A stretch of 64,000 nt of DNA from Candidatus Omnitrophota bacterium (GTDB taxonomy: Bacteria; Omnitrophota; Gorgyraeia; Duberdicusellales; 4484-171), in assembly GCA_024231025.1 (NCBI GenBank), contig JAAEQW010000256.1, positions 2,954-66,953 of the forward strand, given 5' to 3'. The translations under genes were made by a program, and so were the position numbers. Under the pieces are notes generated by a model. That model made no database searches, was not told the origin of the DNA, and saw nothing but the letters and a program-made list of their open reading frames with translations. Each line of letters begins with the position of its first letter. The stretch's first letter is position 1. Positions 22,548-61,775 of this stretch are shown here, one piece after another.

Positions 22548-22552
22548 TAATA

Positions 22553-22643: not shown

Positions 22644-22645
22644 AC

Positions 22646-27000: not shown

Positions 27001-27747
27001 AAAAGTGGTGATTTAGCCGAAGTTTTAATTGACGCCTTAAAAAGCAAGGGAATAGCGTTTCAATTAAAAAGAGGTGCCAACGCAGTTAATAGTGGCGATT
27101 ATGCTGCTAAGATGAATAACGCTGTTAGCGAAATGTTTAGATGGGCAATAGCGACAGGATCTGGCGAATTATTTCCAGAAGATATGTTATTTCAAGGCAA
27201 TCATGGTGAAGATGTAATTAATTTAGCGGCTAACAGGAGTGTTAATCCTCAAGAGAAAATTACTGTTCGTTGGTATCGCAGGGGTGATCCTTCTGTGACT
27301 GATGATCAAGGGAGGGTTGATATTGTCATCTCAGAAGAGGGTCGAGTGAGTATTTTCCACCAGTTAATTAAGCCGCTTGACAGAAATGCCTTAGACGGTG
27401 CGCCTTTGGTTGGCGGTGGAGCAAGAACCTGGGGCGATGTTCTAGATTCTCCGGTATCAGAAGATAATGTGCCGTTTACCGAGCGTAACGGGGCGACAAT
27501 TCGGGTTAAGAAAAAGAAGTCACAAGTGGCTAAGAAGGAAATTAAAGGTAAAGGTAAGGGTAAGGACAGTTATGTTGGCGGTATCGATTTGGATACCGAT
27601 AATTGGGACGTTCAAGTTAAAGGTGGTGGAGCAGAGGTTTCCAGCTTTACGGATCTTCCTTTTGATGTTAAAAATTTGCGCGGGTTCACGCTTGAAATTT
27701 GTGATCGCAGCAGTGTTAACTCGGACGAATTGTTTGCCGTAAGATAG
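24043..27747 (+). CDS. Giant (about 1234 aa) signal-anchored protein of unknown function, paralog A. It has a conserved N-terminal domain shared with the 54668-58822 gene, internal repeat modules, and a Lys/Glu-rich coiled coil
   Basis: Long uninterrupted ORF with a GGAG Shine-Dalgarno 6 nt before the ATG at 24043 (the tracker start at 24031 is TTG). N-terminal TM helix. Residues ~45-375 align with the other giant ORF (ASALPYMSAP...WVNLSP.EKDR...GEDYVLKQLTASLTYP...RRYYSGG). Confidence 0.6.
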   Translation: MILQLQRRRASISFRAVAIIVTTVFLFSVFSLYLSKSHRVYASALPYMSAPAKLVSTSSTFNPPLLRGIKLHADNPFKIDFIVDQGDFSRSSSELEEETKRLIKYFLASITIPEEDLWVNLSPYEKDRMVPNALGLTDMGRDLLGEDYVLKQLTASLTYPDSPLGKKFWDKVYERTEQLYGTTNIPANTFSKIWIMPQKAVVYEDRSGAFVAESHLKVMMEADYFAAQKNQQTIDHRLQTTDHRPETRGRKPDTVTDVSAAIMKDVILPVIEEEINTGAQFAHLRQIYHSLILATWFKKKLKQTALEKAYIGKNKIKGADTSDPQIKEKIYNQYLEAYTKGAYNYIRRDLDVKTNRRVSRRYYSGGFTTAGEMDEAFDARPLERLPAGQSPSDFDNGPSTLFQTDLSALLGDGEEVNMSRHFRTSAQAETVTTGLMNALESKGIVFSPKQWQGYGHADAYTRNMIGRIVTVVGEVIDNDSSDPISLSAQDMAFQRENGRDPIQLHLTKEDKGNTTTFSITFVSQSNQGIVDIALDNGGQIVETDHRPIASNRMARFKTWDPKAAQMLDSLQRLEPTANLLAIITNGRLLDWVQLLWKGAVPSLDELKNYTLGDVADHLSWPSSLTEGIDELISSMKAATLIEYEEMDENGEMVKVTKEWRDPTNSLANRLKKAQKRKDAIDKEFAPAIKRLEARRKTIAASDEGEEDKKKAIAEVDKATAIEKNKAEARKRRIDISLARAISKYSAARLYPGREPRLFLPTPKYTLGEIQDYLSALLNEPDGISTKVAQETSAREKRLELSGKAAEILVNVLSNEGVEFQPKRESSELAPTPLEHDVYIKGIISQITAMLNRVKETDRLTQSDLLYQEINSNSVINLNVERAPSEQGTVLSVAWHRTSSSPAITDNAQGVINLTISNEGEITTSLGIIKNGKGGLPARTFSPESPKGPTPADRPSLLPGGFNSPPVVAGNKPSDDTTITISQDPHEKSGDLAEVLIDALKSKGIAFQLKRGANAVNSGDYAAKMNNAVSEMFRWAIATGSGELFPEDMLFQGNHGEDVINLAANRSVNPQEKITVRWYRRGDPSVTDDQGRVDIVISEEGRVSIFHQLIKPLDRNALDGAPLVGGGARTWGDVLDSPVSEDNVPFTERNGATIRVKKKKSQVAKKEIKGKGKGKDSYVGGIDLDTDNWDVQVKGGGAEVSSFTDLPFDVKNLRGFTLEICDRSSVNSDELFAVR
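24736..24784 (+). repeat. Heptanucleotide microsatellite [(C/T/G)AGAC(C/T)A]x7 inside the coding sequence of giant gene A
   Basis: Units cagacca, tagacca, tagacta, cagacca, cagacca, cagacca, gagacca. They encode TIDHRLQTTDHRPETR. Confidence 0.8.
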
Positions 27748-30900: not shown

Positions 30901-31096
30901 ACCGTTAGATGAAGCTAACGTTGATCGATTCAACCATCTTATAAAAGAGTTTTCATCGTTTTCTCAATTTATTATTATTACCCATAACAAAAAAACCATG
31001 AGCAATGCTGATGTTTTATATGGGGTTACGATGCAGGAGAAGGGGGTGTCAAAGCTCGTTTCAGTAAAACTCGCCGAACAAGAGGTTGCCGCTTAA
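27914..31096 (+). CDS. smc: Chromosome segregation protein SMC
   Basis: N-terminal Walker A (GPNGCGKSN), long coiled coils with a hinge, and a C-terminal ABC signature plus Walker B (LSGGEKALTAIALIFAI...VLDEIDAPLD). Confidence 0.85.
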   Translation: MYLKELEIFGFKSFPEKTKLLFEPGTTVVVGPNGCGKSNVFDAIKWSLGEQSPKSLRGAKMEDVIFNGTERHPALSYSEVTLVFSNEDNYLPIDYKEVSVARRLYRSGESQYFINKSLVRLKDVQQLFMGTGIGESTYSFVEQGKIAIFLSHKPEEKRLIFDEASGIVKYKDRKKETLKRLKEADDNLIRLEDILSEVARQIRYLERQVQKAKKFKEVRERLIEVEKKIATIELSNLDKKSDGFGQELDAFAQQETIKTQELESLNAGANSLEEELNSLRMKLEEANGVVISVNAQIESATSHISVYVQQIDELGQRNQNLHHTQGGLKERLSLHEQRVVEEQARCLAIDGESSLADSQIVALGDESDALSKDIEQARRNAHNEKSKIFEFENDKTHAHNTLIEIQANISSFIKRKQRLTLDKTKIEELVDEKEEAFKQACSDLSNLEEELSILREKKNNLLFKEKELSSRKEEFKNKLINKEKEEVELQSYYDFLKDLSSKYDIFPVDKRITVIFDEEPKNINKLVASLKGVDFSNEEGIYKASVQAKVISLDESQLEHKIQNAAKEIEDIRINLETIGVELNKLRQELIIETKQLENQERKLFESQQEKDNLQRDCQRFREEFELVDQEQRATLESISDLEAQQSKKEEELMTHQQNLALTQGSLDAAQSTIAKSLERIKEIDIEVARKEAHKQSLFKERDSLHSKVSLFEEEKLNIFNNLASLDKEHQDNVLRSNDLQAEINTLHEKIAIDKETTKSAIQEKESLDTQERELLQKISQSRDFARSLEEQCQKFRSCVYNKKLEAQGLDYEREKIKDYLLQVYEENLQHYQYQDTGESFDELLEEKDKLIKRKHSLGEVNLVAIEEFEELKNRQDFLTQQRDDLNISKDNLKKAISKINRTCKELFLETFYKIQEEFKKNFRFLFNGGHASLMLIDKDDVLESGVEIEVQPPGKKCQNVSLLSGGEKALTAIALIFAIFRVRPSPLCVLDEIDAPLDEANVDRFNHLIKEFSSFSQFIIITHNKKTMSNADVLYGVTMQEKGVSKLVSVKLAEQEVAA

Positions 31097-32256
31097 GCCA
31101 GAACGACTCTATTTTTCCCTTGATTTTTTGCTGCATATAAAGCTTTATCGGCTTTTTCGATCAGGGCTGCTTTGTTGTCGCCGTCTTTAGGGAAAGAAGC
31201 AATCCCTACGCTAATTGTGAATTTATGCTTTGAATTGTTTTGAGTTGATTCTCTTATGCGTTGGGCAAGATAGAAAGCTTCTTCCTTGCTTGCCGATGGA
31301 ATAATTAACGAAAACTCTTCTCCGCCATAGCGACAGATTATATCCACTTTGCGACAATTTTCTCTGAATATTTCAGCAATTTTTTTAAGTGCTTTGTCGC
31401 CTTCAATGTGGCCGAAAGTGTCGTTAAATTTTTTAAAGTCGTCTAAATCAACCATCATAATTGATAAGCTTTCGTTATTGGCCTTAGCTCTTTGCAGCTC
31501 CTCATCTAATTTATATTGGAAATATCCATGATTCCATAAAGAAGTTAAGGAGTCGGTGTGAGAGCGGGTTAATGTGTTTTCAAATATTTGAGAGTTTTCA
31601 ATGGCTCCACAAGCTTGCTCAACAAACATATTAAATATTTTTATATCCTCTTCGTTTATTGGCTTTTGAGTGATGGAGTTATCTACAATAATTAATCCGG
31701 CAGGTTTTTCTTTTATCCATAGTGATGCCGCCAGAAAATCTTTTAAGTGTAACTTAGATATTAATGGATCTTTCTGGCTATTTTCTATTTCTTCACTGGC
31801 GAAATAAATGGGCCCCTTTTCGCTAAGGATTTCAGAGAGAATTCCGTTCTCCTTTTCTGTGCTAAAAGACAAGGATCGCACCAGCTCCATAAATTTCGGA
31901 CGCACTTTGCCCTCTTTGATTGGGCGATAGCTTTCGATTAAATCATAAAGATCTTTTTTTTCGTCTTTGATGTTTTTCCATATCGTGTCGGCTTCTGCTC
32001 CGTCAACTGATCCAATTCCCATAAACCCGTTTATTTTTTTATTTCCACTAGCGGTTAAAAAAAGAACCGCGCGATTAAAACCGAGCCCCTGGTGAGCGGT
32101 TAATCCGGTTAAGATGATGTAGGCAATTTCGTCAAGATGCAGAGTTGTGCGCATTGCCTTGGTAAGCTCGTAGAAAATGTAAAGCTGGGAACGTATTTTT
32201 TCTACTTCTTTCTGTAGTTTTTTTATTTCGTCAATCATAGTGTATATTGATATCAT
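31093..32256 (-). CDS. GAF-domain diguanylate cyclase (GGDEF)
   Basis: C-terminal GGDEF domain with an intact RYGGEEF active site and an N-terminal GAF-like sensor. Convergent with smc, overlapping it by 4 bp. Confidence 0.8.
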   Translation of the reverse strand: MISIYTMIDEIKKLQKEVEKIRSQLYIFYELTKAMRTTLHLDEIAYIILTGLTAHQGLGFNRAVLFLTASGNKKINGFMGIGSVDGAEADTIWKNIKDEKKDLYDLIESYRPIKEGKVRPKFMELVRSLSFSTEKENGILSEILSEKGPIYFASEEIENSQKDPLISKLHLKDFLAASLWIKEKPAGLIIVDNSITQKPINEEDIKIFNMFVEQACGAIENSQIFENTLTRSHTDSLTSLWNHGYFQYKLDEELQRAKANNESLSIMMVDLDDFKKFNDTFGHIEGDKALKKIAEIFRENCRKVDIICRYGGEEFSLIIPSASKEEAFYLAQRIRESTQNNSKHKFTISVGIASFPKDGDNKAALIEKADKALYAAKNQGKNRVVLA

Positions 32257-32394
32257 ACTTTAGCTTAGTTTGCAACTTAATTTTTATCTGGTAAAATACA
32301 TTTTGATTCTTTCATGAGCCACTAAGTTCAATACCGTATTGAATCTAGTAGGGGTTTGAAATTTACGAAAGAGTGTGTATTTTTAGGAGATATT

Positions 32395-33426
32395 GTGAAA
32401 AAGAACCTTTTTAAACTTTCTGAATATGATTTCAATTTGCCCCATGAATTGATCGCACAAAGCCCCCTAACCCCGCGGGACAGTTCAAGATTGCTGGTGA
32501 TTAATCGAAAAAACAGCACGATCAATGAGCGCGTTTTTCGCGATATTGTAGATTATTTGGGCGCGGGAGATGCCCTTGTTTTAAATGATACCAAGGTGAT
32601 TAATGCTCGCTTGCTTGGCCAACGCAAAACCGGAGGAAAAATAGAAGCCCTTCTTTTGCGTCAAGAGCGCGCGGGTGTTTGGAGGGCCTTAGTTAATCCA
32701 GGAAAACGAGCAAAAACAGGTGAGGTAATTTTCTTTGAAGGCGGCCTAAGGGCCAAAATTTTGGGTGTAACTTCTGATGGTGGACGTATTTTAGAATTTT
32801 CATCAAAAAATATAAAAAAGTTATTGCCGTCCTTGGGTAAAGTTCCTCTGCCACCTTATATAAAGAAAGAGATTACAAGCCCAGAACAATATCAAACCAC
32901 TTATGCTAATTGTCAAGGAGCAATCGCCGCTCCAACGGCGGGGTTGCATTTTACCAAGGCTCTTTTAAAGAGAATTAAAAGTAAAGGCGTAAAAATAGTC
33001 TATATCACCTTGCATTGCGGTTTGTCTACTTTTCGTCCAGTAAAGACCGACGACATTCGTGATCATCCAATGAGTGAAGAGTGGATTGAAATATCAAAAA
33101 AGGCTTCAGAAGATATCAATGCGGCCAAGCGCATAGTCGCAGTAGGTACTACTGTTGTGCGTGCCCTAGAAAGCGCTGCATATCGGGATGATAGCAATGA
33201 GTGGAGGATGAAATCTTTTCTTGGCGATACTAAGCTATACATGACTTCGGATTACACCTTTAAGGTAGTCGATGCATTAATAACTAATTTTCATACTCCG
33301 CATTCCACTAATTTGATTCTTGTCTCTACTCTATGCGGACGAGAACTATTGAAGAGAAGTTATGAGTATGCGATCAAAGAGAAGTTTAGATTTTTTAGCT
33401 TTGGAGACGCTACTTTTATAGAATAG
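32395..33426 (+). CDS. queA: S-adenosylmethionine:tRNA ribosyltransferase-isomerase
   Basis: Characteristic N-terminus (LSEYDFNLPHELIAQSP). GTG start with an AGGAGA Shine-Dalgarno; the tracker start at 32356 is TTG. Confidence 0.85.
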   Translation: MKKNLFKLSEYDFNLPHELIAQSPLTPRDSSRLLVINRKNSTINERVFRDIVDYLGAGDALVLNDTKVINARLLGQRKTGGKIEALLLRQERAGVWRALVNPGKRAKTGEVIFFEGGLRAKILGVTSDGGRILEFSSKNIKKLLPSLGKVPLPPYIKKEITSPEQYQTTYANCQGAIAAPTAGLHFTKALLKRIKSKGVKIVYITLHCGLSTFRPVKTDDIRDHPMSEEWIEISKKASEDINAAKRIVAVGTTVVRALESAAYRDDSNEWRMKSFLGDTKLYMTSDYTFKVVDALITNFHTPHSTNLILVSTLCGRELLKRSYEYAIKEKFRFFSFGDATFIE

Positions 33427-41997: not shown

Positions 41998-44071
41998 AGT
42001 TTATTTTTTATTCGGTATTCATAATCATCAACCAGTAGGTAATTTTGATCATGTTTTTGAATACGCCTATAAGCGTTGTTATTTTCCTCTTCTAGAGACT
42101 CTCGCCAATTTTCCTAAAATAAAATTTAGTGTACACATCAGCGGTCCCCTTTATGATTGGATCTTAAAAAATCGTAAAGAGTATGTAAGTCTTTTAAAGG
42201 AGATGGTTACTCGCGGCCAGGTTGAGATAATCAGCGGCGGATATTACGAACCGATTTTGCCTTTAATTTCCGATCGTGACAAAAAAGCTCAAATCCAAAA
42301 AATGAATGATTTCATTTCAAAAGAATTTAATTGCACCGCTAGTGGTCTTTGGCTTGCCGAGCGGGTTTGGGAGCCAAACTTACCAGCGATAATTAATCCT
42401 TGTGGATTAGATTATACTTTTTTAGATGATACTCATTTCCGTTTTGCCGGAATCAACAAGAATGAATTCACAGGTTATTATACAACTGAGGACCAGGCTT
42501 TTGGTTTGAAGATTTTTCCAATCAGCAAAGCGCTAAGATATAAAATACCTTTTTCAAGCGCGCAAGAGGGGATCGATTTGCTTAATTCGTTTGCTAGCGA
42601 AGAAGATGTGCTAGTTACATTTTTTGATGATGGAGAAAAATTTGGTCTTTGGCCGAATACTTATGATTGGGTGTATGAGAAGGGCTGGCTTAAAACATTT
42701 CTAACGTATCTTAGCGATTCATTAACTATTGAGACGATTAAGCCGAGTGAGGCAGCACTTAAATTTTCTTCCAGCGGAATAGTTTATTTGCCTACCGCCT
42801 CCTATGAGGAGATGGGGGAGTGGGTTTTATCTGCGGATAGTTTTAATACCTATGACAGATTGAATAACTTTTTAAAGAATCAAAATAAATTTGAAGAATT
42901 CAAAAATTTTGTGAGGGCAGGATTTTTTAGAAATTTTAATCGCAAATATCCGCGCCTTAATTACATGCACAAAAGAATGCTTTCGGTTAGCAAAAAGCTA
43001 CATGCGTATTTGAAAAATGGTGATAAGGCATTTACGAATTTATTTAAGGCCCAAACTAATTGCAGCTATTGGCACGGTGTTTTTGGGGGATTTTATTTGG
43101 GTCATATTCGCGGGGCAGTATATGAAAATCTTATTTGTGCCTTAAATCAACTGGATAAGAAAATTCAAAAGCACGATTTGGTAGTGGAGGAAGAAGATAT
43201 TGATTTAGATGGCGTAAAAGAAACAATTGTAAAAAATAAAAAAATGATCTGTTGTTTTTCACGTAAGGGTGGCACTCTTCTTGAATGTAGCCTGCGTAAT
43301 CCAGCAATCAATTTAACGAACACAATTACTCGTACGGTTGAATCCTATCATAAAAAAATTAAAGAAAATGTGAATGTTGATGCCTCTGTTGCTTCAATCC
43401 ATGATATAGTGGTTCAGAAAGACAAGGATTTAGATAAATTCCTGATTTACGATAATTATGAAAAAGTTAGCCTGATTGATCACCGCTTAGATAAAGATAT
43501 TACGATTGCCGATTTTAATACCGGAAATAAAATCACCACGTTTAGCGATAAAAATTATAACCTTTTAATAAAAAAAAGCACAAAGCAAGCTTCCCTAAAG
43601 TATAAATACGATTCGCAAACAATAAGTTTTACCAAAGAAGTAATCTTAAAAGGGGCATCTTCTTTCGCTGTTGAATATTCACTTAACAATTATTTAGAAA
43701 ATTGTGATTTTGGCGTTGAGTTTAATTTATTTTTACCTTCATTGAAAGATATTGTTGCTGTATCAGAAGGAAAATCTTCCAAAAGCGCTGGTCCTAAAGG
43801 CGTTACGATCAAAAAAGAAAATAAAAAAATATCTTTAAATGAGCCCAAAGTGTTTGATAGCTGTTGTTCGTTTGTTATAATAGGTAATCATAAAAGAATA
43901 AGTTTAGAGTTTGGTTGCGAAGACGCCTGTGTATTTACGATGCCGCTTTATTCGGTATCCTCATCTGAAGCGGGATTCGAAAAGGCGTATCAGCAATTGT
44001 CAGTTCTTTTTAAATTTTCAGGGGAGCGTAAAAAAATTCATTTTACCTTTAAGGTAAAAAAAGGGGAGTAA
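41990..44071 (+). CDS. Glycoside hydrolase family 57 enzyme (third paralog; alpha-amylase / 4-alpha-glucanotransferase-like)
   Basis: N-terminus VYFLFGIHNHQPVGNF. 693 aa with a C-terminal extension. Confidence 0.7.
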   Translation: MGKVYFLFGIHNHQPVGNFDHVFEYAYKRCYFPLLETLANFPKIKFSVHISGPLYDWILKNRKEYVSLLKEMVTRGQVEIISGGYYEPILPLISDRDKKAQIQKMNDFISKEFNCTASGLWLAERVWEPNLPAIINPCGLDYTFLDDTHFRFAGINKNEFTGYYTTEDQAFGLKIFPISKALRYKIPFSSAQEGIDLLNSFASEEDVLVTFFDDGEKFGLWPNTYDWVYEKGWLKTFLTYLSDSLTIETIKPSEAALKFSSSGIVYLPTASYEEMGEWVLSADSFNTYDRLNNFLKNQNKFEEFKNFVRAGFFRNFNRKYPRLNYMHKRMLSVSKKLHAYLKNGDKAFTNLFKAQTNCSYWHGVFGGFYLGHIRGAVYENLICALNQLDKKIQKHDLVVEEEDIDLDGVKETIVKNKKMICCFSRKGGTLLECSLRNPAINLTNTITRTVESYHKKIKENVNVDASVASIHDIVVQKDKDLDKFLIYDNYEKVSLIDHRLDKDITIADFNTGNKITTFSDKNYNLLIKKSTKQASLKYKYDSQTISFTKEVILKGASSFAVEYSLNNYLENCDFGVEFNLFLPSLKDIVAVSEGKSSKSAGPKGVTIKKENKKISLNEPKVFDSCCSFVIIGNHKRISLEFGCEDACVFTMPLYSVSSSEAGFEKAYQQLSVLFKFSGERKKIHFTFKVKKGE

Positions 44072-44077
44072 AATTCC

Positions 44078-44216
44078 AAATAACAAATCCCAAATCACAA
44101 ACAAACCACAATTCTAAATGTTCAAAATAACAAATAGAATCTATGATATTGTTTTGGATATTAAATTATTTGAATTTGGACATTGTTTGTAATTTGTTTT
44201 TTGTAACTTGTAATTT
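44078..44216. repeat. Palindromic AT-rich intergenic element, copy 1. Its CA-rich left arm and TG-rich right arm are inverted copies of the arms at 44505-44650, so the two copies bracket the DUF2934 gene
   Basis: Left arm CCAAATAACAAATCCCAAATCACAAACAAACCACAATTC. The right arm GAATTTGGACATTGTTTGTAATTTG is the reverse complement of 44525-44548. Confidence 0.7.
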
Positions 44217-44504
44217 TTGATAATACGAGGTAAAGAAAAAAAGGGGAGGTTTGAGATGCCGTTTCTAAAAAGGAAAAAAACAAAAGTGAAAGTATCCGCT
44301 AAAATCAAAGCGGCCGTGAAGAAAAGTGCAAAAATAGCTGCTAAAAAAACAATAGCTAAGAAGCCAAAGCTTGATGAAGCTCGTCTAAACCAAATGATTA
44401 AAGAAAGAGCTTATTATATTTGGGAAGAAAGGCAACGACCCAATGGGCAAGATTCTGATATCTGGGCGCAAGCTGAAAAAGATATGCATAAGAATATCAA
44501 ATAA
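44217..44504 (+). CDS. DUF2934-like small basic protein
   Basis: Lys/Ala-rich N-terminus and C-terminal motif RAYYIWEERQRPNGQDSDIWAQAE. Shine-Dalgarno AAGGGGAGGTTT. Confidence 0.5.
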   Translation: MIIRGKEKKGRFEMPFLKRKKTKVKVSAKIKAAVKKSAKIAAKKTIAKKPKLDEARLNQMIKERAYYIWEERQRPNGQDSDIWAQAEKDMHKNIK

Positions 44505-44650
44505 CAAATCACAAATTTCAAAATACAAACAATGTCCAATTGCCAAAAATCCAATGAACAAAAGGGTATTATTTTATTTTGTTTGATATTTTAGTTATTT
44601 GGAATTGTGGTTTGTTTGTGATTCGTGTATTGTGTATTGTAATTTTTTGA
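44505..44650. repeat. Palindromic AT-rich intergenic element, copy 2
   Basis: ATTTGGAATTGTGGTTTGTTTGTGATT (44600-44626) is the reverse complement of 44092-44118 with one mismatch. The same AAGGGGAGGTTT Shine-Dalgarno module follows. Confidence 0.7.
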
Positions 44651-52585: not shown

Positions 52586-52610
52586 ATTATAAGGATTGCA
52601 ATTCCTTATA
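52586..52610. promoter_or_regulatory. Perfect 9-bp inverted repeat TTATAAGGA-N7-TCCTTATAA abutting the -35 of the downstream promoter (operator candidate)
   Basis: Read directly from the sequence. -35 ttgaca at 52612-52617, -10 tactat at 52635-52640, in-frame GTG at 52647. Confidence 0.4.
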
Positions 52611-53774
52611 ATTGACAAAATTCAAGGAATATGGTACTATAAAGGCGTGAATATACCAAGAATTTACGATGATTTAAATAAATACCTAAAGCCTAACAAG
52701 GCTTTAATCCTGTATGGATCTCGACAAGTTGGCAAGACCACTCTTTTAAATAAGTTTCTTTCGCAAACCTCATATAGATATAAACTAGATTCTGGTGATA
52801 ATATAAAGACACAAAATGTTTTAGGCTCAAGAGATTTTGCCTTAATTAAAGAGTATGCTCAAGGGTATGACTTGATTGCCGTTGATGAGGCTCAAAAAAT
52901 ACCTAGCGTAGGGACGGGGATTAAAATTATTGTTGACCAAATGCCGGGAGTAATGGTTATTGCTACCGGATCCTCTTCATTCGAGTTAGCTGGACAAATT
53001 GGTGAACCGCTTACCGGAAGGAAAAATACGTTAGCTTTGTATCCGATTTCTCAACTTGAGTTAATAAAGCTGCATAATCGATGTGAATTAAAAGACAGAC
53101 TCGAAGACTTTTTAGTTTTCGGTGCATATCCAGAGGTTGTAACTGCAGAAAGTAAAATCGATAAGATACGGATTATTGAAGAAATAAGCCAATCCTACCT
53201 ATTTAAAGATATCTTACAGTTAGACAAAATACGAAATTCGAAAATACTTTTAGACTTAGTTCGTTTGCTTGCTTTTCAAATTGGGAATGAAGTGTCTCTT
53301 AGCGAGATCGCTAAACAACTAGGAATCGATTATAAAACAGTTGGTCGCTATCTCGACTTACTTGAGAAATCGTTCATTATATATAATTTGCGTGGATTTA
53401 GTAGAAATCTTAGGAGTGAAATAATTAAAAAAAGTAAATATTATTTTATCGATAATGGTATACGGAATGCTATTATTTCTAATTTTAATAGCTTAGAGTT
53501 GCGTAATGATATAGGGGCGCTGTGGGAGAATTTTTTGTTTATCGAGAGATTAAAAAAGCGTACGTATAAGAATATATACGCAAATAATTATTTTTGGCGA
53601 ACATGGACACAAAAAGAAATAGACTTGGTTGAGGAACGAGACGGAAAATTATTTGCTTTCGAATTTAAATGGGGAAAAACTAGAGTAAAGCCACCTAAAG
53701 ATTGGGTTCAAGCTTATCCCGAATCAGAATTTATGGTTATTAATCAAGAAAACTACCTCGATTTTATAACCTAA
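52596..53774 (+). CDS. AAA-family ATPase with a DUF4143 C-terminal domain
   Basis: Walker A ILYGSRQVGKTTLL and Walker B LIAVDEAQ. The true start is probably the in-frame GTG at 52647 (leaderless); the listed start is a TTG inside the palindrome. Confidence 0.6.
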   Translation: MQFLIIDKIQGIWYYKGVNIPRIYDDLNKYLKPNKALILYGSRQVGKTTLLNKFLSQTSYRYKLDSGDNIKTQNVLGSRDFALIKEYAQGYDLIAVDEAQKIPSVGTGIKIIVDQMPGVMVIATGSSSFELAGQIGEPLTGRKNTLALYPISQLELIKLHNRCELKDRLEDFLVFGAYPEVVTAESKIDKIRIIEEISQSYLFKDILQLDKIRNSKILLDLVRLLAFQIGNEVSLSEIAKQLGIDYKTVGRYLDLLEKSFIIYNLRGFSRNLRSEIIKKSKYYFIDNGIRNAIISNFNSLELRNDIGALWENFLFIERLKKRTYKNIYANNYFWRTWTQKEIDLVEERDGKLFAFEFKWGKTRVKPPKDWVQAYPESEFMVINQENYLDFIT

Positions 53775-53797
53775 AACTACTAGTTGCTATGTGTTGA

Positions 53798-54562
53798 TTA
53801 TGTTGTTTTAGTTGCAAAAACTAACCATCCGGTGTGTGAAGGCATTGTTTGCTCGGGGCGAGTTTTACCGCGGCGAACAAGAATTCTGCGAACCAATACT
53901 TCAATTGTTTCGATATTAACAAAACCTTTATCTTCTAAGGCAAAAACAGTTTTGGTAAGCTGATCAAACGTTGGGCAAATTGTTGCAAGTTGACACCCTC
54001 CCTTTAAGGATTTATGCGCAGCATCAATTAGGGCCCACTGGCTTCCGATGTCAATCATTACAAAGTCTACTTCTTTTTGTGGATACTCATCAAATATTTC
54101 TTGATGGTTAAATTCAACCCATTCACTTAAACCGTTTTTTTCCAGGTTTTTTTTAGCATTCTGTAAAAACTCTTCGTTTCTTTCGTAGCTGTAAACTTTG
54201 CCGGTGGGTCTTACAAAATTAGCTAGTGCTGTGGTTAACGCGCCTGATCCAATACCGGATTCAATGACGTTTGCGCCGGGAAAAATCTGACCCCGAGTTA
54301 AAATTAAGCCAATATCTTTTGGATAAATAATTTGGGTTTGGCGTTTTACCTTCATTATTTTTTCGTGCAGAGTTGGCTTAAGCAGGTAGAAGTCATCACC
54401 CAAATTGGTGCTTACTTTTTCACCGAAATCCTTGCCAATAAAGGCGCTCATATCCAAAAATCCTTTATCAGTATGCAGACGTCCGCCCTGCACCTTTATC
54501 AGAAAGTTTCTGCGATGGTCGTGATACACCAAAACTAAATCACCCGCCTCAATCATGCTCAT
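53798..54562 (-). CDS. SAM-dependent methyltransferase of the tRNA (adenine-N1)-methyltransferase TrmI/Gcd14 family
   Basis: Rossmann SAM motif VIESGIGSGALTTALA with a GCD14-like N-terminal beta domain. Confidence 0.6.
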   Translation of the reverse strand: MSMIEAGDLVLVYHDHRRNFLIKVQGGRLHTDKGFLDMSAFIGKDFGEKVSTNLGDDFYLLKPTLHEKIMKVKRQTQIIYPKDIGLILTRGQIFPGANVIESGIGSGALTTALANFVRPTGKVYSYERNEEFLQNAKKNLEKNGLSEWVEFNHQEIFDEYPQKEVDFVMIDIGSQWALIDAAHKSLKGGCQLATICPTFDQLTKTVFALEDKGFVNIETIEVLVRRILVRRGKTRPEQTMPSHTGWLVFATKTT

Positions 54563-54574
54563 AATATACCAGTT

Positions 54575-54605
54575 TAAATAATTCTTGCAAGAAAATAAGG
54601 TTTGT
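54575..54605. repeat. 31-bp direct repeat copy 1 (TAAATAATTCTTGCAAGAAAATAAGGTTTGT), containing the perfect palindrome TTCTTGCAAGAA. Lies between the trmI-like start and the 3' end of giant gene B
   Basis: Identical to 58966-58996. Confidence 0.85.
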
Positions 54606-54667
54606 TATTAATACAAGGAATAAATTTTTGATGTAGCAGTGTAGTAGTGTAGTAATGTGGTGGTAAT

Positions 54668-57600
54668 TTACATCGATAACTTTTTAAATAGATCGGTGAT
54701 TTCCTTTGAACCAAGTATTTTGTAGCCGAATCCGGGAAAATCCTTAATTGTTTGTTCGGAGGCCTTGTAAGTATGGAAGACCTTTAAACCTTTGCCTTTT
54801 ACAGTTATATTGCCTCTATCTGTTAAGTCAACGCCTCCAAGGGTGTCGCGCTCACCTTGATAGTTACTGTCTTGCCCGTATTCCTGTTTGATCCCCTCTA
54901 ATGCATCAGAGGTTGTACTTATGACTTCAACATCAGCCATATTTAAAGTTTTCAACATTTCCTCCAATGTTTCAGAAGAGTTCTCAATGAGAAGAGCCAA
55001 AGCTATATTTGAAATGAGACCCAGATCCTCTAATTCATCTTTCAAATCCCAGGGTGCTTCAGCCGATCCTTGAGCAAGAGATTCACCAAATAAATCAGAT
55101 AAGCGCTCTTCTTCATCGTTATCAATTCCAGAAAGGTCATGACCTTCTTGGCGAAGGTGTCTTATAAAAGCGTGAAATGTTTCATGACCGTCACGAAATC
55201 TCTTAGCAAAGTTAAGATCGATTTCTTTAGGGTCTTTATTAAGGCGCTTGGCTAGTTCAGGTATTTGATCTTCTAATTCTTCGTCGGAGGTGTAAATAGT
55301 TTGTTTACCGGTTGCTAAATTTTCAACCATCCAGCCAAAAGATTTTCCACCAAGCATCAACGGTTTCGCAATAACTTGCATCTGGCGCAGAATTGTTTTA
55401 GCCAGCGCTTTGTTTCCATTGGGGTGACTTTTCATAATTCCTGCTGCTTGAGGGATTGATTCTAAATATTCATGAGAGTAAGCAAAGCGGTATCCTTGGG
55501 CTCTATGAGCATGAGTTGCACCATCTTTAAAGCGGGCGTCTGTGGCTTTTTCAAAAGCAGCATTTATCGGACTGTTATTATAGTTATCCGAGGCTAAAGC
55601 TATTGCGGTGAGTCCGTCAATTACTTCTTTTTGTGCTAGAAGATTATGTATATTTTGTGCGCTTAAAAGTGCACACAATGCCTCAATTACTTTGTCGGCA
55701 CCGTTGTTGTTGTCGATAACATATTGAATTGCCTGAGGTAAAACTTTTTTTGCTGAATCTAGAGTATCAGATCCACCGTGTTTGCCACGTAGAAGATGTG
55801 AAAGAGCAATAGCAATATCCTCACTACCCCCTCGGATAATTGAATATGCATCATCGCTGGCAAGAAGATATCTTACTTCTTCTTCGCGGGTTTCCGGTTG
55901 CCAGCCTATTGCTTTAAGGCCTTGGGCAGAATTGAGACCAAAATTTTTGCTCTGATTACCTAATCCATGGCTTAGGGTTGAGGTGACGACGGCTCCAACG
56001 TCGTTAGGAAGACTCTTTTTTTGTGTTTTAGCTAGGGCAGCGCTAATGTAAAGAATAGCGAATTCTCTTTTTCTATCGTCTTTTTCATAAATAGGACGTC
56101 TGTAAACGTCTTTTCCGGGACCAATAATTTGAGCCAACCCAACAGGATTATGTCTGAGATAATTTTCGTAATCTGTTTCTTCGCCTCGAACGATCTGATA
56201 TAGTAAATCTAATCCACCCGGTACATCATTAATTAACTCCATCAATTTGGCTTCAGTGCTTTCGTCATAAAATATGTACCTATTATCGATGCCGATAGAC
56301 CCTTTGAAAATTTCAATAATTGCTTTTTTAGGGTCGGAAGGTAGCGCTAATGATTCTTTTATTGTGTATCCGGCTAGGGCGAGAGTCGCGGTACCCGCAA
56401 TACCTCCTCCAAGTTTTTTAAGAAAGTCACGTCGCGGCATACTCATGGTGTATGCTTGTTGCCCGGCTGCTCGCAGGCGTTCTTTAGTTTCTGCCATTTC
56501 CGCAGGAGTGCTTGATTTAACGATTATATCAACACCGAATCGCTGCTTGATTATTTTATCCAATTCGTAGGGGTCCTTGTTGTCGCTCAGATTTTGGTTT
56601 TGCAAGTATTCCCAGAGGTCACTTATTAGCGAAAGTCCGTTTTGTGATAAGTGAATGTTAATTTGTGCCTCCAAAGCGCTTATTCTTTCTTCATGTTGGG
56701 GCGGAATCTTATTGCGCCCTAGGGCCCAAGAAATCGCAAAGATGTCGGCTAATTTTTCATTATGTTCAAATCCAATAAGTTCAAAAATGAGGTGAGCGGT
56801 TTCATGACCGTCAATAAAACGAATTGCCATTTCAGGGGTAACCGTTACATCAGTTATTCCCAAACCCTCAAGAAGTTCTTGGAAATCTTGAATATATTCC
56901 TCAATAGTTTTATCGTTATGATGAATTGTTATACTGCCGTCAGCGCCGGGTACAAATAATCCCTGTAGATTGTCATTTAGCATTTTTTCCATCGCCTTTG
57001 TGCCTTCTGATCCAGATGCACCATCATTCTCAACGGGTTCAATAGATATTGATTCATCTGATACCCCTTCGCTGTCTTGAGTCCAGGTAACCTTAACTTG
57101 GCGGCCGCGATACCATGCCAATTGACTTAAAATTCTTTTTTTCTGCTCATCGGAAAGTGCCTCATTCTTTTCAACAGTATCCATAAGTTCTTCAGCTGTA
57201 TCTCTAAAATCAGCGTTGATGGTTACCAATACAATGTGAAATAGAAAAAACCCTGGCTTTGATTCTTCTTCAATCGCTATCGATTCATCTAATACCCCTT
57301 CGCTGCCTTGAGTCCAGGTAATTTTAACTTCATTCTTGCCAAGCTTTTTCAGATTTTCTAATATTATCTCCTTTTGCTTATCAGAAAGTGCCTCATTCTT
57401 TTTGATATCTTCCATAAGTTCTTCAGCTGTGCCTTTAAGATTGGCTTTTATGATCATTATTGGAGAGGTAAATATAACAGCACCTCGCTGATTATTATCT
57501 TCATAGACTACCTCTTGCTCGATGTGTGTTTCTTCTGATAGAGGCAGTGGTTCAATTTTGGCCATGTTTTTTGGGGTTGAAGCACAGGCGATTTCCAGTC

Positions 57601-58822
57601 CACCTGCGACTAAAACAACTGCAAGGTTAGTTAAAGGGTTTTTTTTCAATTTCTCTGCAACTTTACCAGATTTTCCAGCTAATGGTTGTCGACCTTTTTT
57701 TACAACATTGCCGGTTTTTTTAGCAAATTTGACACCGCCAGAGTAATAGCGGCGATTGATGTGTTTTTTGGAGGATGGGTCAAAATCTTTTTTGATGTAA
57801 TCGTAGACACCTTTTTTGTATGCTTGAAGGTATTGATCGTAAATTTTATTTTTTAATTCAGGGTCATTATGTTTTATGCTGTCTATCTTTTTCTGATCAG
57901 CGGAAAGTTGAGTTACAATATGTTCTTTTAGCTTTTGCTTAAACCAGGTAGCTAAAAGTAATGAGTGGTAAACTTGGCGGAGATGTGAGAAATTCTTACC
58001 ATAATTTACATCACGTTCGATTTCGGGCAAAACCTCTTCCTTAAGTATTTCTGAGGTTATTTCGTGTATTTTTTCTTTTTGTCCGGCGCTTGCTTTAGGC
58101 GATTGGCGCAGATGACTTTGGTTTTCCATTGCGAGATAATCTTGTTCCGACATTACCTTAAGATAGCTCTCAGTTATAATTGCTTTGTCGTCATCTTCGT
58201 ATATTGTGGCACTTTGGGGAACAATCCAAACTTTATTGAAGGTGTCTATTGGAATTTTAATTGTACCGAAAAGCTCGCTGGCTTTAGCATAAATTTTTTG
58301 CCAGTATTGTTTGCCGATTTTATTTTCAGGATAAGTTAAAGAGGCTGTTAATTGTTTTAGGACATAATCTTCACCAAGCATATCCGCGCCCATATCGGTT
58401 TGGGCGAGTGTTTCAGGAATGACGCGATCTTTTTCGTGAGGAGAAAGATTAACCCAAAGGTCGTCTTCGGGCATAGTTAACGCGGCAAGAAAATAGCGGA
58501 TTAGTGTGTTGCTTTCTTCTTTTAATTTTTCTTTACCGAAATTGCTATTTCCCGCATCAACAATGAATTCAAATTTAAAAGGGTCATCGCCAAATACTTT
58601 AATTCCTCGCAGTATTGGTGCATCAAACGCAACGCTTGCATCAATTAGCTTGGTGGGGGCGGACATGTAGGGCAGGGCAGAGGCGTAGGCTGACGATGTT
58701 TGCAGGGCCGGTGTGCGCATAATCAATGTGCTAATTCCCGCAAGCAGCACCCCTGATGCGATAAAAACTGCTAAAATCTTAAAGGAAATCGACCCTTTTC
58801 TAAGTACTGATAGTTTATGCAT
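54668..58822 (-). CDS. Giant (1384 aa) signal-anchored protein of unknown function, paralog B. It has a conserved N-terminal domain shared with 24043-27747, a tandem ~75-aa repeat, two DGHETxH motifs, and an internal Tat-like motif
   Basis: Uninterrupted ORF with an N-terminal TM helix (ILAVFIASGVLLAGISTLIM). Residues ~45-365 align with giant A. Confidence 0.6.
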   Translation of the reverse strand: MHKLSVLRKGSISFKILAVFIASGVLLAGISTLIMRTPALQTSSAYASALPYMSAPTKLIDASVAFDAPILRGIKVFGDDPFKFEFIVDAGNSNFGKEKLKEESNTLIRYFLAALTMPEDDLWVNLSPHEKDRVIPETLAQTDMGADMLGEDYVLKQLTASLTYPENKIGKQYWQKIYAKASELFGTIKIPIDTFNKVWIVPQSATIYEDDDKAIITESYLKVMSEQDYLAMENQSHLRQSPKASAGQKEKIHEITSEILKEEVLPEIERDVNYGKNFSHLRQVYHSLLLATWFKQKLKEHIVTQLSADQKKIDSIKHNDPELKNKIYDQYLQAYKKGVYDYIKKDFDPSSKKHINRRYYSGGVKFAKKTGNVVKKGRQPLAGKSGKVAEKLKKNPLTNLAVVLVAGGLEIACASTPKNMAKIEPLPLSEETHIEQEVVYEDNNQRGAVIFTSPIMIIKANLKGTAEELMEDIKKNEALSDKQKEIILENLKKLGKNEVKITWTQGSEGVLDESIAIEEESKPGFFLFHIVLVTINADFRDTAEELMDTVEKNEALSDEQKKRILSQLAWYRGRQVKVTWTQDSEGVSDESISIEPVENDGASGSEGTKAMEKMLNDNLQGLFVPGADGSITIHHNDKTIEEYIQDFQELLEGLGITDVTVTPEMAIRFIDGHETAHLIFELIGFEHNEKLADIFAISWALGRNKIPPQHEERISALEAQINIHLSQNGLSLISDLWEYLQNQNLSDNKDPYELDKIIKQRFGVDIIVKSSTPAEMAETKERLRAAGQQAYTMSMPRRDFLKKLGGGIAGTATLALAGYTIKESLALPSDPKKAIIEIFKGSIGIDNRYIFYDESTEAKLMELINDVPGGLDLLYQIVRGEETDYENYLRHNPVGLAQIIGPGKDVYRRPIYEKDDRKREFAILYISAALAKTQKKSLPNDVGAVVTSTLSHGLGNQSKNFGLNSAQGLKAIGWQPETREEEVRYLLASDDAYSIIRGGSEDIAIALSHLLRGKHGGSDTLDSAKKVLPQAIQYVIDNNNGADKVIEALCALLSAQNIHNLLAQKEVIDGLTAIALASDNYNNSPINAAFEKATDARFKDGATHAHRAQGYRFAYSHEYLESIPQAAGIMKSHPNGNKALAKTILRQMQVIAKPLMLGGKSFGWMVENLATGKQTIYTSDEELEDQIPELAKRLNKDPKEIDLNFAKRFRDGHETFHAFIRHLRQEGHDLSGIDNDEEERLSDLFGESLAQGSAEAPWDLKDELEDLGLISNIALALLIENSSETLEEMLKTLNMADVEVISTTSDALEGIKQEYGQDSNYQGERDTLGGVDLTDRGNITVKGKGLKVFHTYKASEQTIKDFPGFGYKILGSKEITDLFKKLSM
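57050..57470 (-). repeat. Intragenic tandem duplication (about 230-bp unit x2, roughly 80% identical) in giant gene B, encoding two roughly 75-aa modules
   Basis: Protein repeats TAEELMEDIKKNEALSDKQKEIILENLKKLGKNEVKITWTQGSEGVLDESIAIE and TAEELMDTVEKNEALSDEQKKRILSQLAWYRGRQVKVTWTQDSEGVSDESISIE. Confidence 0.8.
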
Positions 58823-58965
58823 AATTGCTCCTTTTTTGAAATAATATCCTATTACTCCTAATGTATACCATATTATGCGTGAAAAAACAAAGGCTTAAGG
58901 GGTGTAAAAAGATAACGTTTTCATGTAATTCTTTTGTGTTGCGTATTATTTAAAATTGCCAAAAG

Positions 58966-58996
58966 TAAATAATTCTTGCAAGAAAATAAGGTTTGT
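58966..58996. repeat. 31-bp direct repeat copy 2 (identical to 54575-54605), in the divergent region between giant gene B and apgM. It embeds the apgM -35
   Basis: Exact 31/31 match. TTGCAA (58976-58981), 17-nt spacer, TAAACT (58999-59004), ATG at 59014 (leaderless candidate). Confidence 0.85.
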
Positions 58997-59013
58997 ATTA
59001 AACTTTCTTAGGT

Positions 59014-60204
59014 ATGAAGTATATAGTTATAGTTTTAGATGGAGCCAGCGATCATCCTTTGGAAGTTTTAGGCGAGAAGACTCCCCTAGAGGTTGCGGAT
59101 ACTCCGCATATGGATAGCTTAGCGCATAAGGGTATTCTTGGGCGCACCAAGAATGTTCCGCGTGGGTTTCCCGCTTCAAGTGATGTGGCGAACCTCTCTT
59201 TGCTTGGTTATGATCCGCAAGAATATTATTGCGGTAGAGGGCCCTTGGAGGCAGCGAATTTGGGAGTCAAACTTGGCAAGGACGACTTAGCCTTTAGATG
59301 CAATTTGATTACCGAGACTGAAAACAGAGTTGTTGATTATAGTGCCGGTCACATTCCCAATAAAGAATCTAAAATATTGATGAAATATGTCAATGAAAAG
59401 CTGGGAAGCAAAGATATCGAATTCTACTCCGGTACCAGCTATAGAAATTTAATGGTTTTTCGCGGAGGGAAAAAATATAATCTCCAGGAAAGTAAATATT
59501 TTGCTCCGCATGATATTATGGGTAAAAAAATAAAACGCCATCTTCCTCGCGGTAAAAATATTAATCTGGTATCTGACCTGATGAATAAATCGCGCGAGGT
59601 TCTAAGTGCTCATGCAATAAATAAGGTACGTATCGATTTAGGGGAAAATCCTGCTAATATGATTTGGCTTTGGGGTGTTGGTGCAAAACCGGCGATGCCT
59701 GCCTTTAAAGAGAAATTCGGCATTAACGGTGCGGTTATCTCAGCGGTGGATCTTATAAAGGGTATCGGTAGAATTGTTGAAATGGATGTTATCGAAGTGG
59801 AAGGCGCAACCGGTTATTATGATACAAATTATCGTGGCAAAGCCGCCGCGGCCCTTAAAGCTTTAGAGAGCGTTGACTTTGTTTTTATTCATATTGAAGC
59901 ACCCGATGAAGCGGGGCACAACGGTGATTTAAGAATGAAGATTTCATGCATCGAGCGAATTGATAAGTTTATAGTTGGTACAGTTCTAGAAGGCATGCGT
60001 GGCAAGGATTTCAGAATTTTAGTTACTCCTGATCATCCTACGCCGGTTGAAAAAAGAACGCACACCGATGAGCCAGTTCCGTTTGTGCTTTACGGTCGCG
60101 AAATAGAACCAGGTGGATTTTCTTCTTATTCAGAGCTAGAGGCACAAAATTCAAGCCTTTATTTCGATAACGGCGCCGCTCTTATAAGGCACTTAATAGG
60201 ATAG
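59014..60204 (+). CDS. apgM: 2,3-bisphosphoglycerate-independent phosphoglycerate mutase, archaeal type
   Basis: N-terminus MKYIVIVLDGASDHPLEVLGEKTPLEVADTPHMDSLA is diagnostic of the ApgM family. Confidence 0.85.
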   Translation: MKYIVIVLDGASDHPLEVLGEKTPLEVADTPHMDSLAHKGILGRTKNVPRGFPASSDVANLSLLGYDPQEYYCGRGPLEAANLGVKLGKDDLAFRCNLITETENRVVDYSAGHIPNKESKILMKYVNEKLGSKDIEFYSGTSYRNLMVFRGGKKYNLQESKYFAPHDIMGKKIKRHLPRGKNINLVSDLMNKSREVLSAHAINKVRIDLGENPANMIWLWGVGAKPAMPAFKEKFGINGAVISAVDLIKGIGRIVEMDVIEVEGATGYYDTNYRGKAAAALKALESVDFVFIHIEAPDEAGHNGDLRMKISCIERIDKFIVGTVLEGMRGKDFRILVTPDHPTPVEKRTHTDEPVPFVLYGREIEPGGFSSYSELEAQNSSLYFDNGAALIRHLIG

Positions 60205-61599: not shown

Positions 61600-61775
61600 A
61601 AGATACAAGATGCAATGACCCCGCCTGCCGGCGGGCAGGCAAACAATAACCAATAATCAATTTTTAATAACCAAACGGTTTGATAATTGAGTATTGAAAT
61701 TTGTTTGTAGCTTGTAACTTGCCTGCCCGCCGTATTGGCAGGCGGGTATCTTGTTTCTTGTATTGAAAATAACCA
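61600..61775. repeat. Palindromic AT-rich intergenic element, copy 3, with two embedded GC-rich hairpins that share identical stem halves
   Basis: Left arm CCAAGATACAAGAT; the right arm ATCTTGTTTCTTGT is its inverted copy. Hairpin 1 is GCCTGCC-ggcg-GGCAGGC (61633-61650). Hairpin 2 is GCCTGCC-cgccgtatt-GGCAGGC (61730-61752). Confidence 0.65.

Follow-up and report, generated by a model that had tools for sequence, protein, structure and literature searches.

On comparison with related genomes, the segment carrying geneB in this Candidatus Omnitrophota bacterium is a lineage-specific 4,360-bp insertion with a sharp-edged duplication of a promoter core on its two sides. It lies between a trmI-like gene and apgM in the window, that is, the whole stretch of 64,000 nucleotides that was analysed; the source sequence is a metagenome assembly (MAG), from which the junctions are taken. 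The reading that we favour, with a probability of about 0.7, is that the repeat is the duplicated core of an ancestral back-to-back divergent promoter, and that geneB was inserted there with both neighbours keeping their promoters. The locus is an instance of tidy genome evolution, and no new mobile element, switch or regulon is revealed by it.

An exact 31-bp repeat on both sides of geneB

The repeat, TAAATAATTCTTGCAAGAAAATAAGGTTTGT, is a 31-mer present in two exact copies (31/31 identical) in direct orientation. The initial annotation had considered it to exceed chance expectation, and this is confirmed: with up to 3 mismatches allowed, only these two matches are found in the 64-kb window and none in 100 dinucleotide shuffles. 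The perfect 12-bp palindrome that it had described at the core, TTCTTGCAAGAA, was also found, and within the window solely at the two copies. Between copy A and the first ATG of the trmI-like ORF (53798-54562, minus strand) there are 12 nt, and 62 nt separate this copy from the geneB stop, which it follows; copy B precedes the apgM ATG (59014) by 17 nt and the geneB ATG (58822) by 143 nt. The features of the locus are as follows, in window coordinates.

53798-54556, minus strand: trmI-like gene (GCD14 family; Pfam GCD14, E=1.5e-37), likely true start at the second ATG (54556)
54563-54571, minus strand: putative native extended -10 of trmI (TGG TATATT), outside the repeat; scan hit TTGCAA, 16 nt, TATATT with TG
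54575-54605, no strand: repeat copy A, duplicated promoter core on the trmI side; exact 31-mer, aligning to the conserved trmI/apgM intergenic module of relatives
54585-54590, no strand: palindromic -35 hexamer TTGCAA of copy A; from the minus-strand promoter scan, with CTTGCA invariant in 20/20 relatives
54606-58965, minus strand: lineage-specific inserted segment of 4,360 bp, containing geneB alone, which has a leader and Shine-Dalgarno sequence of its own; absent in about 25 relatives
54668-58822, minus strand: geneB (GY858_05880), 1384 aa; signal-peptide/anchor-like N-terminus, conserved module at about aa 8-370, variable C-terminal part
58828-58833, minus strand: Shine-Dalgarno sequence AAGGAG, 5 nt before the geneB ATG, as read from the sequence
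58953-58961, minus strand: possible extended -10 (TGG CAATTT) for geneB, belonging to the leftward face of copy B; a weak candidate read from the sequence and missed by the scan
58966-58996, no strand: repeat copy B, same promoter core on the apgM side; exact 31-mer; the conserved module of relatives extends into its right flank, ATTAAACT
58976-58981, no strand: palindromic -35 hexamer TTGCAA of copy B, with a 17-nt spacer to the conserved TAAACT
58999-59004, plus strand: putative native -10 of apgM (TAAACT), outside the repeat; assigned from the near-invariance of TTTGTAtTAAACT in relatives, the scan not calling it (8 of 12 matches)
59014-60204, plus strand: apgM (cofactor-independent phosphoglycerate mutase; Pfam PhosphMutase and Metalloenzyme), ATG 9 nt after the -10

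The trmI gene encodes a GCD14-type tRNA methyltransferase and apgM is a gene of glycolysis; the neighbourhood comprises trmI, an AAA_14/DUF4143 gene, an lpxA-like gene, apgM, and an aspartate kinase gene. The two copies had been thought to share about 6 more bp of their flanks, but gapped alignment against shuffles does not sustain this extension past 31 bp (p=0.83 on the right, 0.97 on the left). With flank similarity at chance level, the edges of the duplication are sharp at 31 bp. Among relatives, 13 of the 31 repeat positions vary freely; the two copies in the window are nonetheless identical, which indicates that the duplication is young or has been homogenised.

Empty sites in related genomes

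Divergently oriented trmI and apgM lie directly next to each other in about 25 related genomes, where no geneB intervenes and the gap narrows to as little as 59 nt. Removing one repeat copy and the insert from the window rebuilds a spacer of 60 nt. In a neighbour-joining tree built on apgM, aspK and leuA (no support values), the window nests among the empty-site genomes, and a metagenome scan with TCTTGCAAGAANATANGGTTTGT retrieved one contig, which holds another empty site, of the L007 type. The check that the initial annotation had proposed, namely a search for trmI beside apgM with one copy of the module, was therefore positive, and its suggestion of an insertion flanked by a duplicated target is supported by these single-module sites and by the nested position of the window. 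As the nearest apgM is only 72% identical and the branch leading to the lineage of the window is long, the insertion is undatable by comparison.

A -35 hexamer probably read in both directions

In relatives, the trmI/apgM spacer is a module composed of TATATT (-10 of trmI), TGn, a spacer, CTTGCAAG, a second spacer, and TAAACT (-10 of apgM). In an anchored alignment of relatives, the 31-mer coincides with this module and both -10s lie just outside the repeat; CTTGCA is kept in 20/20 relatives and TTTGT in 18-20/20, with TAAACT and TGn-TATATT conserved as well. The 31-mer is composed of 10 nt, TTGCAA and 15 nt, corresponding to the shared -35 plus parts of both spacers.

On the trmI side, a minus-strand promoter scan picked up TTGCAA-16 nt-TATATT with TG at copy A, and the equivalent extended -10 in relatives is TGA TATATT. 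On the apgM side, TTGCAA-17 nt-TAAACT was read from the sequence; it has 8/12 matches, below the threshold of the simple scan. This agrees with the earlier proposal that the palindrome supplies the -35 of apgM. In both directions the hexamers fit a sigma-70-type promoter: the distance from -35 to -10 is within the expected 16-18 nt, and the second and sixth bases of the -10 are A and T. At the reconstructed empty site, 30 bp separate the two -10s. For both trmI and apgM, the start codon lies about 7-9 nt past the -10, and both mRNAs are hence predicted to be leaderless or nearly so. The true trmI start is likely the second ATG (54556), which would give a leaderless mRNA: relatives align from residue 2-3 and the -10 ends 6 nt before this ATG. 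All promoter assignments are drawn from consensus and conservation, and promoter activity and leaderless starts are putative throughout.

The initial annotation had also raised the reading of a copied operator-promoter module, with copy A firing antisense into geneB. The promoter part stands, the repeat being a promoter core that includes the apgM -35, but the operator and the antisense direction are unlikely. The predicted working direction of copy A is leftward into trmI; rightward, the apgM-type -10 was not duplicated, and TTAATA or TAATAC stands in its place, without the key -10 positions. The only element of -35 quality upstream of geneB is the leftward face of copy B, which probably drives this gene, the putative -10 CAATTT being weak. 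No terminator or stable fold was found after geneB, so read-through from it may add to trmI transcription.

Proposed history of the locus

In the ancestral state, a single self-complementary -35, TTGCAA, would have served both trmI (leftward) and apgM (rightward), pairing with TGn-TATATT 16 nt off in the first case and with TAAACT 17 nt off in the second. In the lineage of the window, a segment of 4,360 bp with only geneB, its own leader and its ribosome-binding site would have entered this promoter, and 31 bp, encompassing the -35 and most of both spacers and neither -10, would have ended up on either side of it. The duplication may have arisen in the insertion event itself, most simply via fill-in of breaks staggered by 31 bp. 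Copy A with the native trmI -10 would form a complete trmI promoter, and copy B with the native apgM -10 a complete apgM promoter; since the 31-bp core lies on both sides of the insert, both promoters would still be complete. Selection would keep only those events that leave both housekeeping genes with a promoter. The palindrome itself would be a by-product of two overlapping -35 elements rather than an operator.

On this account, the locus would offer a natural example of a gene entering a fully packed 60-nt two-way promoter with neither housekeeping neighbour silenced, by way of duplication of the shared -35 core. It would also document a compact promoter design in an uncultured phylum, in which one palindromic -35 (TTGCAA) serves two predicted leaderless genes and is conserved in many genomes. 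Such a design may be of use in annotating Omnitrophota promoters and start codons, for example the second ATG of trmI.

Comparison with known arrangements

Back-to-back divergent sigma-70-type promoters with overlapping -35 regions are a classical arrangement of divergent bacterial genes. Like them, the trmI/apgM pair would fire outward from a short shared spacer with hexamers 16-17 nt apart, and in both cases two polymerases could not occupy the shared -35 together. Unlike them, trmI and apgM would use a single self-complementary TTGCAA as -35 both ways; moreover, the spacer between them spans about 60 nt, both transcripts are predicted to lack a leader, and a broad group of Omnitrophota has kept this layout. 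The trmI/apgM promoter also differs from the bidirectional promoters described by Warman and Grainger, in which a symmetric -10 is shared and start sites are mostly 18 bp apart, with 10 and 23 bp also common (PMC12825309; bioRxiv 10.1101/2020.01.31.928960). Here it is the -35 that is shared, the -10s lie outside it and 30 bp apart, and about 60 bp separate the predicted start sites; the locus thus falls outside that class, whose divergent starts are located within one shared -10 or on its two sides, about 10-23 bp apart (PMC12825309).

As in transposon target-site duplications, host sequence is doubled around the insert, the edges are sharp, and relatives retain an intact empty site. The target duplications of known transposases are of fixed length and measure about 2-15 bp, whereas 31 bp are duplicated here. 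Furthermore, unlike transposable elements, the insert is a single cargo-like gene: geneB is the sole ORF, no transposase or integrase domain is found in the insert, and no terminal inverted repeats pair at its ends. Between the flanks, the longest inverted match spans 12 nt, just as the palindromic core does. A transposon or insertion sequence was rejected on these grounds.

In Xer/dif sites, which are 28 bp long, a 6-bp centre separates two inverted arms of 11 bp each. A Xer/dif-flanked element (IMEX) was rejected, the symmetry of the 31-mer being a single central 12-bp palindrome and the orthologous site acting as a putative promoter in every relative. Inspection also led to the rejection of an integron attC site and of a CRISPR repeat. 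For known structured RNAs, no Rfam covariance model matched at gathering score in the whole window, and 53500-59500 showed nothing beyond sub-threshold noise.

The inserted gene and its family

A conserved N-terminal module characterises the large Omnitrophota family to which the geneB protein belongs; at least 11 other copies of this family are present in this MAG. Large proteins with unannotated N-terminal regions are described in the Omnitrophota papers surveyed, which contain nothing on the 31-bp repeat or the trmI/apgM promoter. No orthologue of geneB above about 55% identity was found among 5.8 billion proteins. The protein has no Pfam match at E<=0.001, even at E<=1 none of its matches is transposase-like, and a structure model of the N-terminal module (pLDDT 75.9) gave no Foldseek match in the PDB and no predicted recombinase-like fold. 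Searches with this module gave no match in phages and only weak matches to hypothetical proteins in Streptomyces plasmids. No leader shared among family members was found. Flanking repeats are absent in 4/4 other members (geneA of the window, L082, L083 and L084), which rules them out as a family trait. The gene is native-like in composition and without a known donor copy.

Alternative origins of the repeat

The alternative that survives best, though an unlikely one, is a site-specific or homology-driven (Campbell-type) integration, in which a geneB circle carrying one 31-bp copy recombined with the chromosomal promoter core. A single crossover leaves just such identical, sharp-edged direct repeats on the two sides of a discrete segment, and the 31/31 identity of short direct sequences at both ends of the insert recalls the cores of attL and attR. 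The lengths of att cores include 31 bp, which is also close to the minimum that RecA-dependent recombination requires. If this were the origin, the repeats would resemble attL and attR, and the segment might be excised through them as a circle of 4,391 bp. The remaining attributes of such elements are nevertheless missing: no integrase, excisionase or other recombinase gene is found in the insert or among the neighbouring genes, the modelled geneB N-terminus does not suggest a recombinase-like fold, and the window holds no tRNA, hence no tRNA or tmRNA target. What circle and chromosome would have had in common is a conserved promoter of the host itself, so that an incoming circle would have needed to bring 31 bp of this very locus with it, and the four other family members lack such repeats. 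The att-like site put forward in the initial annotation, and with it an integrative element, was set aside for want of a recombinase and of a tRNA target, the identical core being the one attribute present.

Rather less probable is a regulatory module, in which TTCTTGCAAGAA would be the operator of a dimeric transcription factor and two copies would be kept to co-regulate trmI, geneB and apgM. A perfect 12-bp palindrome at both copies, overlapping the -35, is in the classic position for a repressor, and TTTGTAtTAAACT is more strongly conserved than expected for a -10 region alone. The 12-bp symmetry is, however, unique to the genome of the window, relatives keeping 8-10 bp or less; relatives with separate one-way promoters keep CTTGCAA and lose the symmetric G, which is also lost in L035 and L022, two relatives with the shared promoter. 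No further TTCTTGCAAGAA sites exist in the 64 kb of this genome, nor is there an excess away from the locus in 1.31 Mb of DNA from relatives. There, CTTGCAAG occurs 28 times, 18 of them at the orthologous site and the rest at or below background. The prospect that the 31-mer is a common genome-wide motif, which would have refuted the initial annotation, did not materialise in these 64 kb and 1.31 Mb. An operator would also leave the 31/31 identity at freely varying positions unexplained. On the DNA sampled, a palindromic operator with a regulon is accordingly improbable, and a single -35 hexamer serving both directions accounts better for the palindrome.

An effect of the assembly graph, whereby the geneB segment would be a population variant or a separate molecule sharing the 31-mer and threaded in as a loop, is improbable. 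The source is a MAG (locus tags GY858_*), and 31, the length of the repeat, is a common assembler k-mer length. Even such a loop, however, requires reads across both junctions of insert and 31-mer, and the sharing of the 31-mer would thus be genuine in either case. Moreover, geneB shows no foreign composition signal, its GC, GC3 and codon usage matching the contig, and neither a replication gene nor a mobility gene is present on the 4.39-kb unit.

With regard to the duplication by staggered breaks favoured above, it is conceivable, at long odds, that its sharp 31-bp edges are the footprint of an unrecognised trans-acting integration process of Omnitrophota with cuts staggered by about 30 bp, by analogy with Cas1-Cas2 and the duplication of CRISPR repeats. 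If true, integration with such a stagger could help to spread the hugely expanded N-terminal-module gene family into intergenic regions.

Finally, the least probable alternative is the reverse polarity, with geneB ancestral and lost in relatives through recombination between the repeats, or toggled by such a deletion as a programmed switch, as the initial annotation had suggested: recombination of one copy with the other would restore the ancestral spacer at precisely 60 nt, but nothing in the sequence speaks for a switch, the nesting of the window among empty-site lineages would demand several independent precise losses, neither a geneB orthologue nor a recombinase was found in the searches above, and the identity of the two copies at freely varying positions favours a young duplication.

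A 31-bp repeat on either side of gene B

The initial annotation had described an exact 31-bp duplicate on either side of gene B, its giant gene, as too long to arise by chance, and both points hold. The repeat, TAAATAATTCTTGCAAGAAAATAAGGTTTGT, is present twice on the plus strand, at 54575-54605 (copy A) and 58966-58996 (copy B), with 31/31 identical positions. It has exactly two matches in the 64-kb window, even with up to 3 mismatches allowed, and is absent from all 100 dinucleotide-preserving shuffles of the window. The 12-bp palindrome TTCTTGCAAGAA is, within the window, restricted to these two copies. The similarity said to run about 6 bp past the repeat did not withstand analysis, gapped alignments of the flanks being no better than those of shuffles (p = 0.83 and 0.97). 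Genes and repeat copies are arranged in this order.

53798-54562, minus strand: trmI, GCD14-family tRNA methyltransferase
54575-54605: copy A, between trmI and gene B
54668-58822, minus strand: gene B, 1384 aa, without a Pfam domain
58966-58996: copy B, between gene B and apgM
59014-60204, plus strand: apgM
Following apgM: aspartate kinase gene, then a LeuA-like gene

Given this minus, minus, plus order, trmI and gene B are co-directional and gene B and apgM are divergent.

The repeat as core of a predicted two-way promoter

When the trmI-apgM spacers of relatives are aligned with TTGCAA as anchor, they share the conserved module …TATATCAyyWTAAAAAnATC-TTGCAA-GnAnATAnnnTTTGTAT-TAAACT…. Read leftward, TTGCAA and TATATT stand 16 nt apart, TGn closes the spacer between them, and the trmI ATG comes about 7 nt further on. 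Read rightward, TTGCAA is followed by a 17-nt spacer and TAAACT; from there to the apgM ATG it is 7 nt in L004, L013 and L019, which are compact genomes, and 9 nt in the window. A consensus scan independently called the leftward promoter at copy A (TTGCAA-16-TATATT with upstream TG); the rightward one scores 8/12, under the scan threshold, and the apgM promoter is predicted solely from its conservation. Functionally, the spacer would be a pair of back-to-back sigma-70-type promoters. In the recently described bacterial 'bidirectional promoters' (PMC12825309) the common element is the -10 and the start sites lie about 18 bp from each other, whereas the trmI/apgM pair shares the -35. The spacing implies that both mRNAs are probably leaderless or nearly so, and also that the actual trmI start would be the second ATG (54556), in agreement with the N-termini in relatives.

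Of the nucleotides in the 31-mer, exactly 10 belong to the leftward spacer, 6 to the shared hexamer and 15 to the rightward spacer, with both -10s outside. Copy A sits next to the original -10 of trmI, and copy B next to that of apgM; both housekeeping genes therefore retain a complete predicted promoter. Upstream of gene B, the leftward face of copy B is the only -35-quality element, and 17 nt beyond it lies TGG-CAATTT, which is weak as an extended -10-like site, the two forming a putative gene B promoter. On its rightward face, copy A runs into TTAATA or TAATAC, in which key -10 positions are missing, and for this reason the antisense firing into gene B that had been envisaged for the 3'-end copy is not predicted.

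TTGCAA is the sole self-complementary hexamer starting with TTG, so a single copy can act as a -35 both ways, and the C favoured ahead of TTG, on either strand, lengthens it to CTTGCAAG. A two-way -35 is the favoured reading of the palindrome. That TTCTTGCAAGAA might instead be the operator of a dimeric regulator, or a regulon motif, is weakened by its symmetry in relatives and its distribution. Relatives with separate promoters (L012, L014, L023, L024, L031) retain CTTGCAA and have lost the symmetric G, which is also missing from L022 and L035 despite their shared promoter; among the relatives compared, the full 12-bp symmetry is found in the window's genome alone. Nor is CTTGCAAG enriched off-locus: 18 of its 28 occurrences in 1.31 Mb of Omnitrophota DNA are the orthologous trmI/apgM site, and the remaining 10 do not exceed random expectation.

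The window contains three intergenic TTGCAA sites, in copy A, in copy B and at 32270. This third site is the single one in the spacer (32257-32355) of the divergent genes 31093-32256 (minus) and 32356-33426 (plus), and is readable as a -35 both ways (forward TTGCAA-16-TGG TAAAAT; reverse TTGCAA-17-TATCAA, with an ATG near). The location of all three at divergent promoters tentatively suggests that a shared -35 is a design used repeatedly.

Empty sites, polarity and age

Gene B is identical to GY858_05880 of a Candidatus Omnitrophota MAG. The empty site that the initial annotation had proposed to look for, trmI beside apgM without gene B, does exist: among the 80 Omnitrophota loci that an apgM scan (one genome per species) yielded, the two genes are direct divergent neighbours in about 24 of the closest, and likewise in one metagenome contig, with gaps of 59 to about 690 nt and no gene B homologue in between. 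Taking out one repeat and the 4,360 bp that separate the two copies leaves a trmI-apgM spacer of 60 nt; that of L004 and L019 measures 59 nt. In a neighbour-joining tree of apgM, aspK and leuA, which carries no support values, the window falls inside the empty-site group, with empty-site genomes branching on either side. Among 5.8 billion proteins there is no gene B orthologue, the best non-self matches (about 50-55% identity) being confined to the N-terminal quarter. Given this nested position and the lack of an orthologue, insertion of gene B in the window's lineage is the parsimonious polarity.

Across 20 relatives, 13 of the 31 repeat positions vary freely, and the relatives match the window 31-mer at 15-27 positions, against 31/31 between the copies. 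Identity at freely varying positions, together with the sharp edges, indicates that the duplication is probably much younger than the divergence between the sampled genera; the alternative is gene conversion homogenising the copies. From the 13 free sites, divergence between the copies has a 95% upper bound of about 0.23 substitutions per site. The databases hold no species- or genus-level relative (top apgM match, 72% identity), and the dating therefore cannot be made finer.

L030 and L032, the window's nearest tree neighbours, lack trmI at this position, and their lpxA is followed at once by the apgM promoter module, so the locus has undergone more than one rearrangement. In the window, an AAA_14/DUF4143 ATPase gene (52596-53774) separates trmI from the lpxA-like gene; many relatives have these two in convergent orientation about 30 nt apart, which makes the ATPase gene another lineage-specific insertion, at 0.8 kb from gene B and with no flanking repeat longer than 10 nt.

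Origin of the duplication

These comparisons support a reading in which gene B was inserted into the shared promoter, the duplicated core preserving the promoters on both sides. The favoured route is insertion at breaks staggered by 31 bp, the gaps then being filled in. Selection would retain only insertions that leave trmI and apgM each with a -35, because a simple insertion would orphan one gene in a 60-nt spacer filled by two overlapping promoters. Campbell-type or att-type integration fits the geometry of the repeats, but comes without a recombinase in or beside the insert and demands incoming DNA that already held 31 bp of host promoter. Less probably, an assembly loop placed the gene B segment between the repeats, but the shared 31-mer would have to be real anyway. 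Nothing supports an ancestral gene B that was lost repeatedly, or its programmed switching by excision, although repeat-to-repeat recombination would restore the ancestral spacer exactly.

The insert contains gene B alone, preceded by a leader of 143 nt in which a canonical AAGGAG stands 5 nt ahead of the ATG, and extends 62 nt past the stop. The insert ends have no terminal inverted repeats, the insert no terminator-like site (the RNA 3' of gene B lacks a stable fold, z = -0.11) and the window no tRNA genes or Rfam matches, and the GC, GC3 and codon usage of gene B are typical for the contig, all of which counts against a mobile element. In structure, the repeat is similar to a target-site duplication or att core; repeat and insert lack the defining properties of a transposon, an integrative element, a Xer/dif element and an integron cassette. 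The most fitting label for the repeat is an unusual form of insertion-associated duplication, and it shows instructively how promoters are organised and genomes evolve in an uncultured phylum.

The gene B protein

Gene B starts with a signal-peptide or anchor-like segment and carries a strongly conserved protein module of about 360 aa, common to more than 2,240 Omnitrophota proteins, which differ in their C-terminal parts and bear assorted enzyme domains there. The same MAG (GY858 tags) has at least 11 other family members among the matches listed, one of them matching the window ORF 24031-27747. A 2 x 77-aa tandem repeat (nt 57038-57489) and an internal twin-arginine-like motif, RRDFLKKLGGGIAGTATLALAG, at about aa 800 suggest a mosaic to which a formerly separate exported protein may have been fused. 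A model of the protein module, of reasonable quality (pLDDT 75.9), is without a match in the PDB (best E about 0.1) and gives no hint of a recombinase or nuclease; since it lacks a Pfam family as well, the module may represent an undescribed domain family. Distant homologues of the module (57593-58822), hypothetical proteins with 25-29% identity and E down to 6e-27, are encoded on large Streptomyces plasmids, such as Streptomyces fungicidicus plasmid p1 (L089).

Four other family members, all in unrelated housekeeping contexts, have no flanking repeats above background (longest 9-10 nt, versus 31 at gene B). The repeat thus belongs to the single gene B event, not to the family.

Other structured repeats

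In many relatives (L001, L007/L081, L014, L031, L034) the stretch from the promoter to the apgM or trmI start includes long inverted repeats of low complexity, with arms such as GACTATAGACAATAGACCATAGAC … GTCAATAGTCAATAGTCTATAGTC; a lone arm of similar look, GTAGCAGTGTAGTAGTGTAGTAATGTGGTGG, lies directly after gene B (54633-54665). A 12-nt gap separates inverted arms of 46 nt (74% complementary) at 61629-61732, between the aspartate kinase and LeuA-like genes; they have no Rfam match and could be a leader or attenuator structure. At 44070-44646, between an ORF ending at 44071 and one starting at 45079, is a large imperfect inverted repeat with arms of 71-74 nt, 73-77% complementary. Finally, a tandem pair of units, about 45 nt long and both containing the hairpin arms GGGACAGGT/ACCTGTCC, occupies 22546-22647, between ORFs 21756-22547 and 22646-23836.
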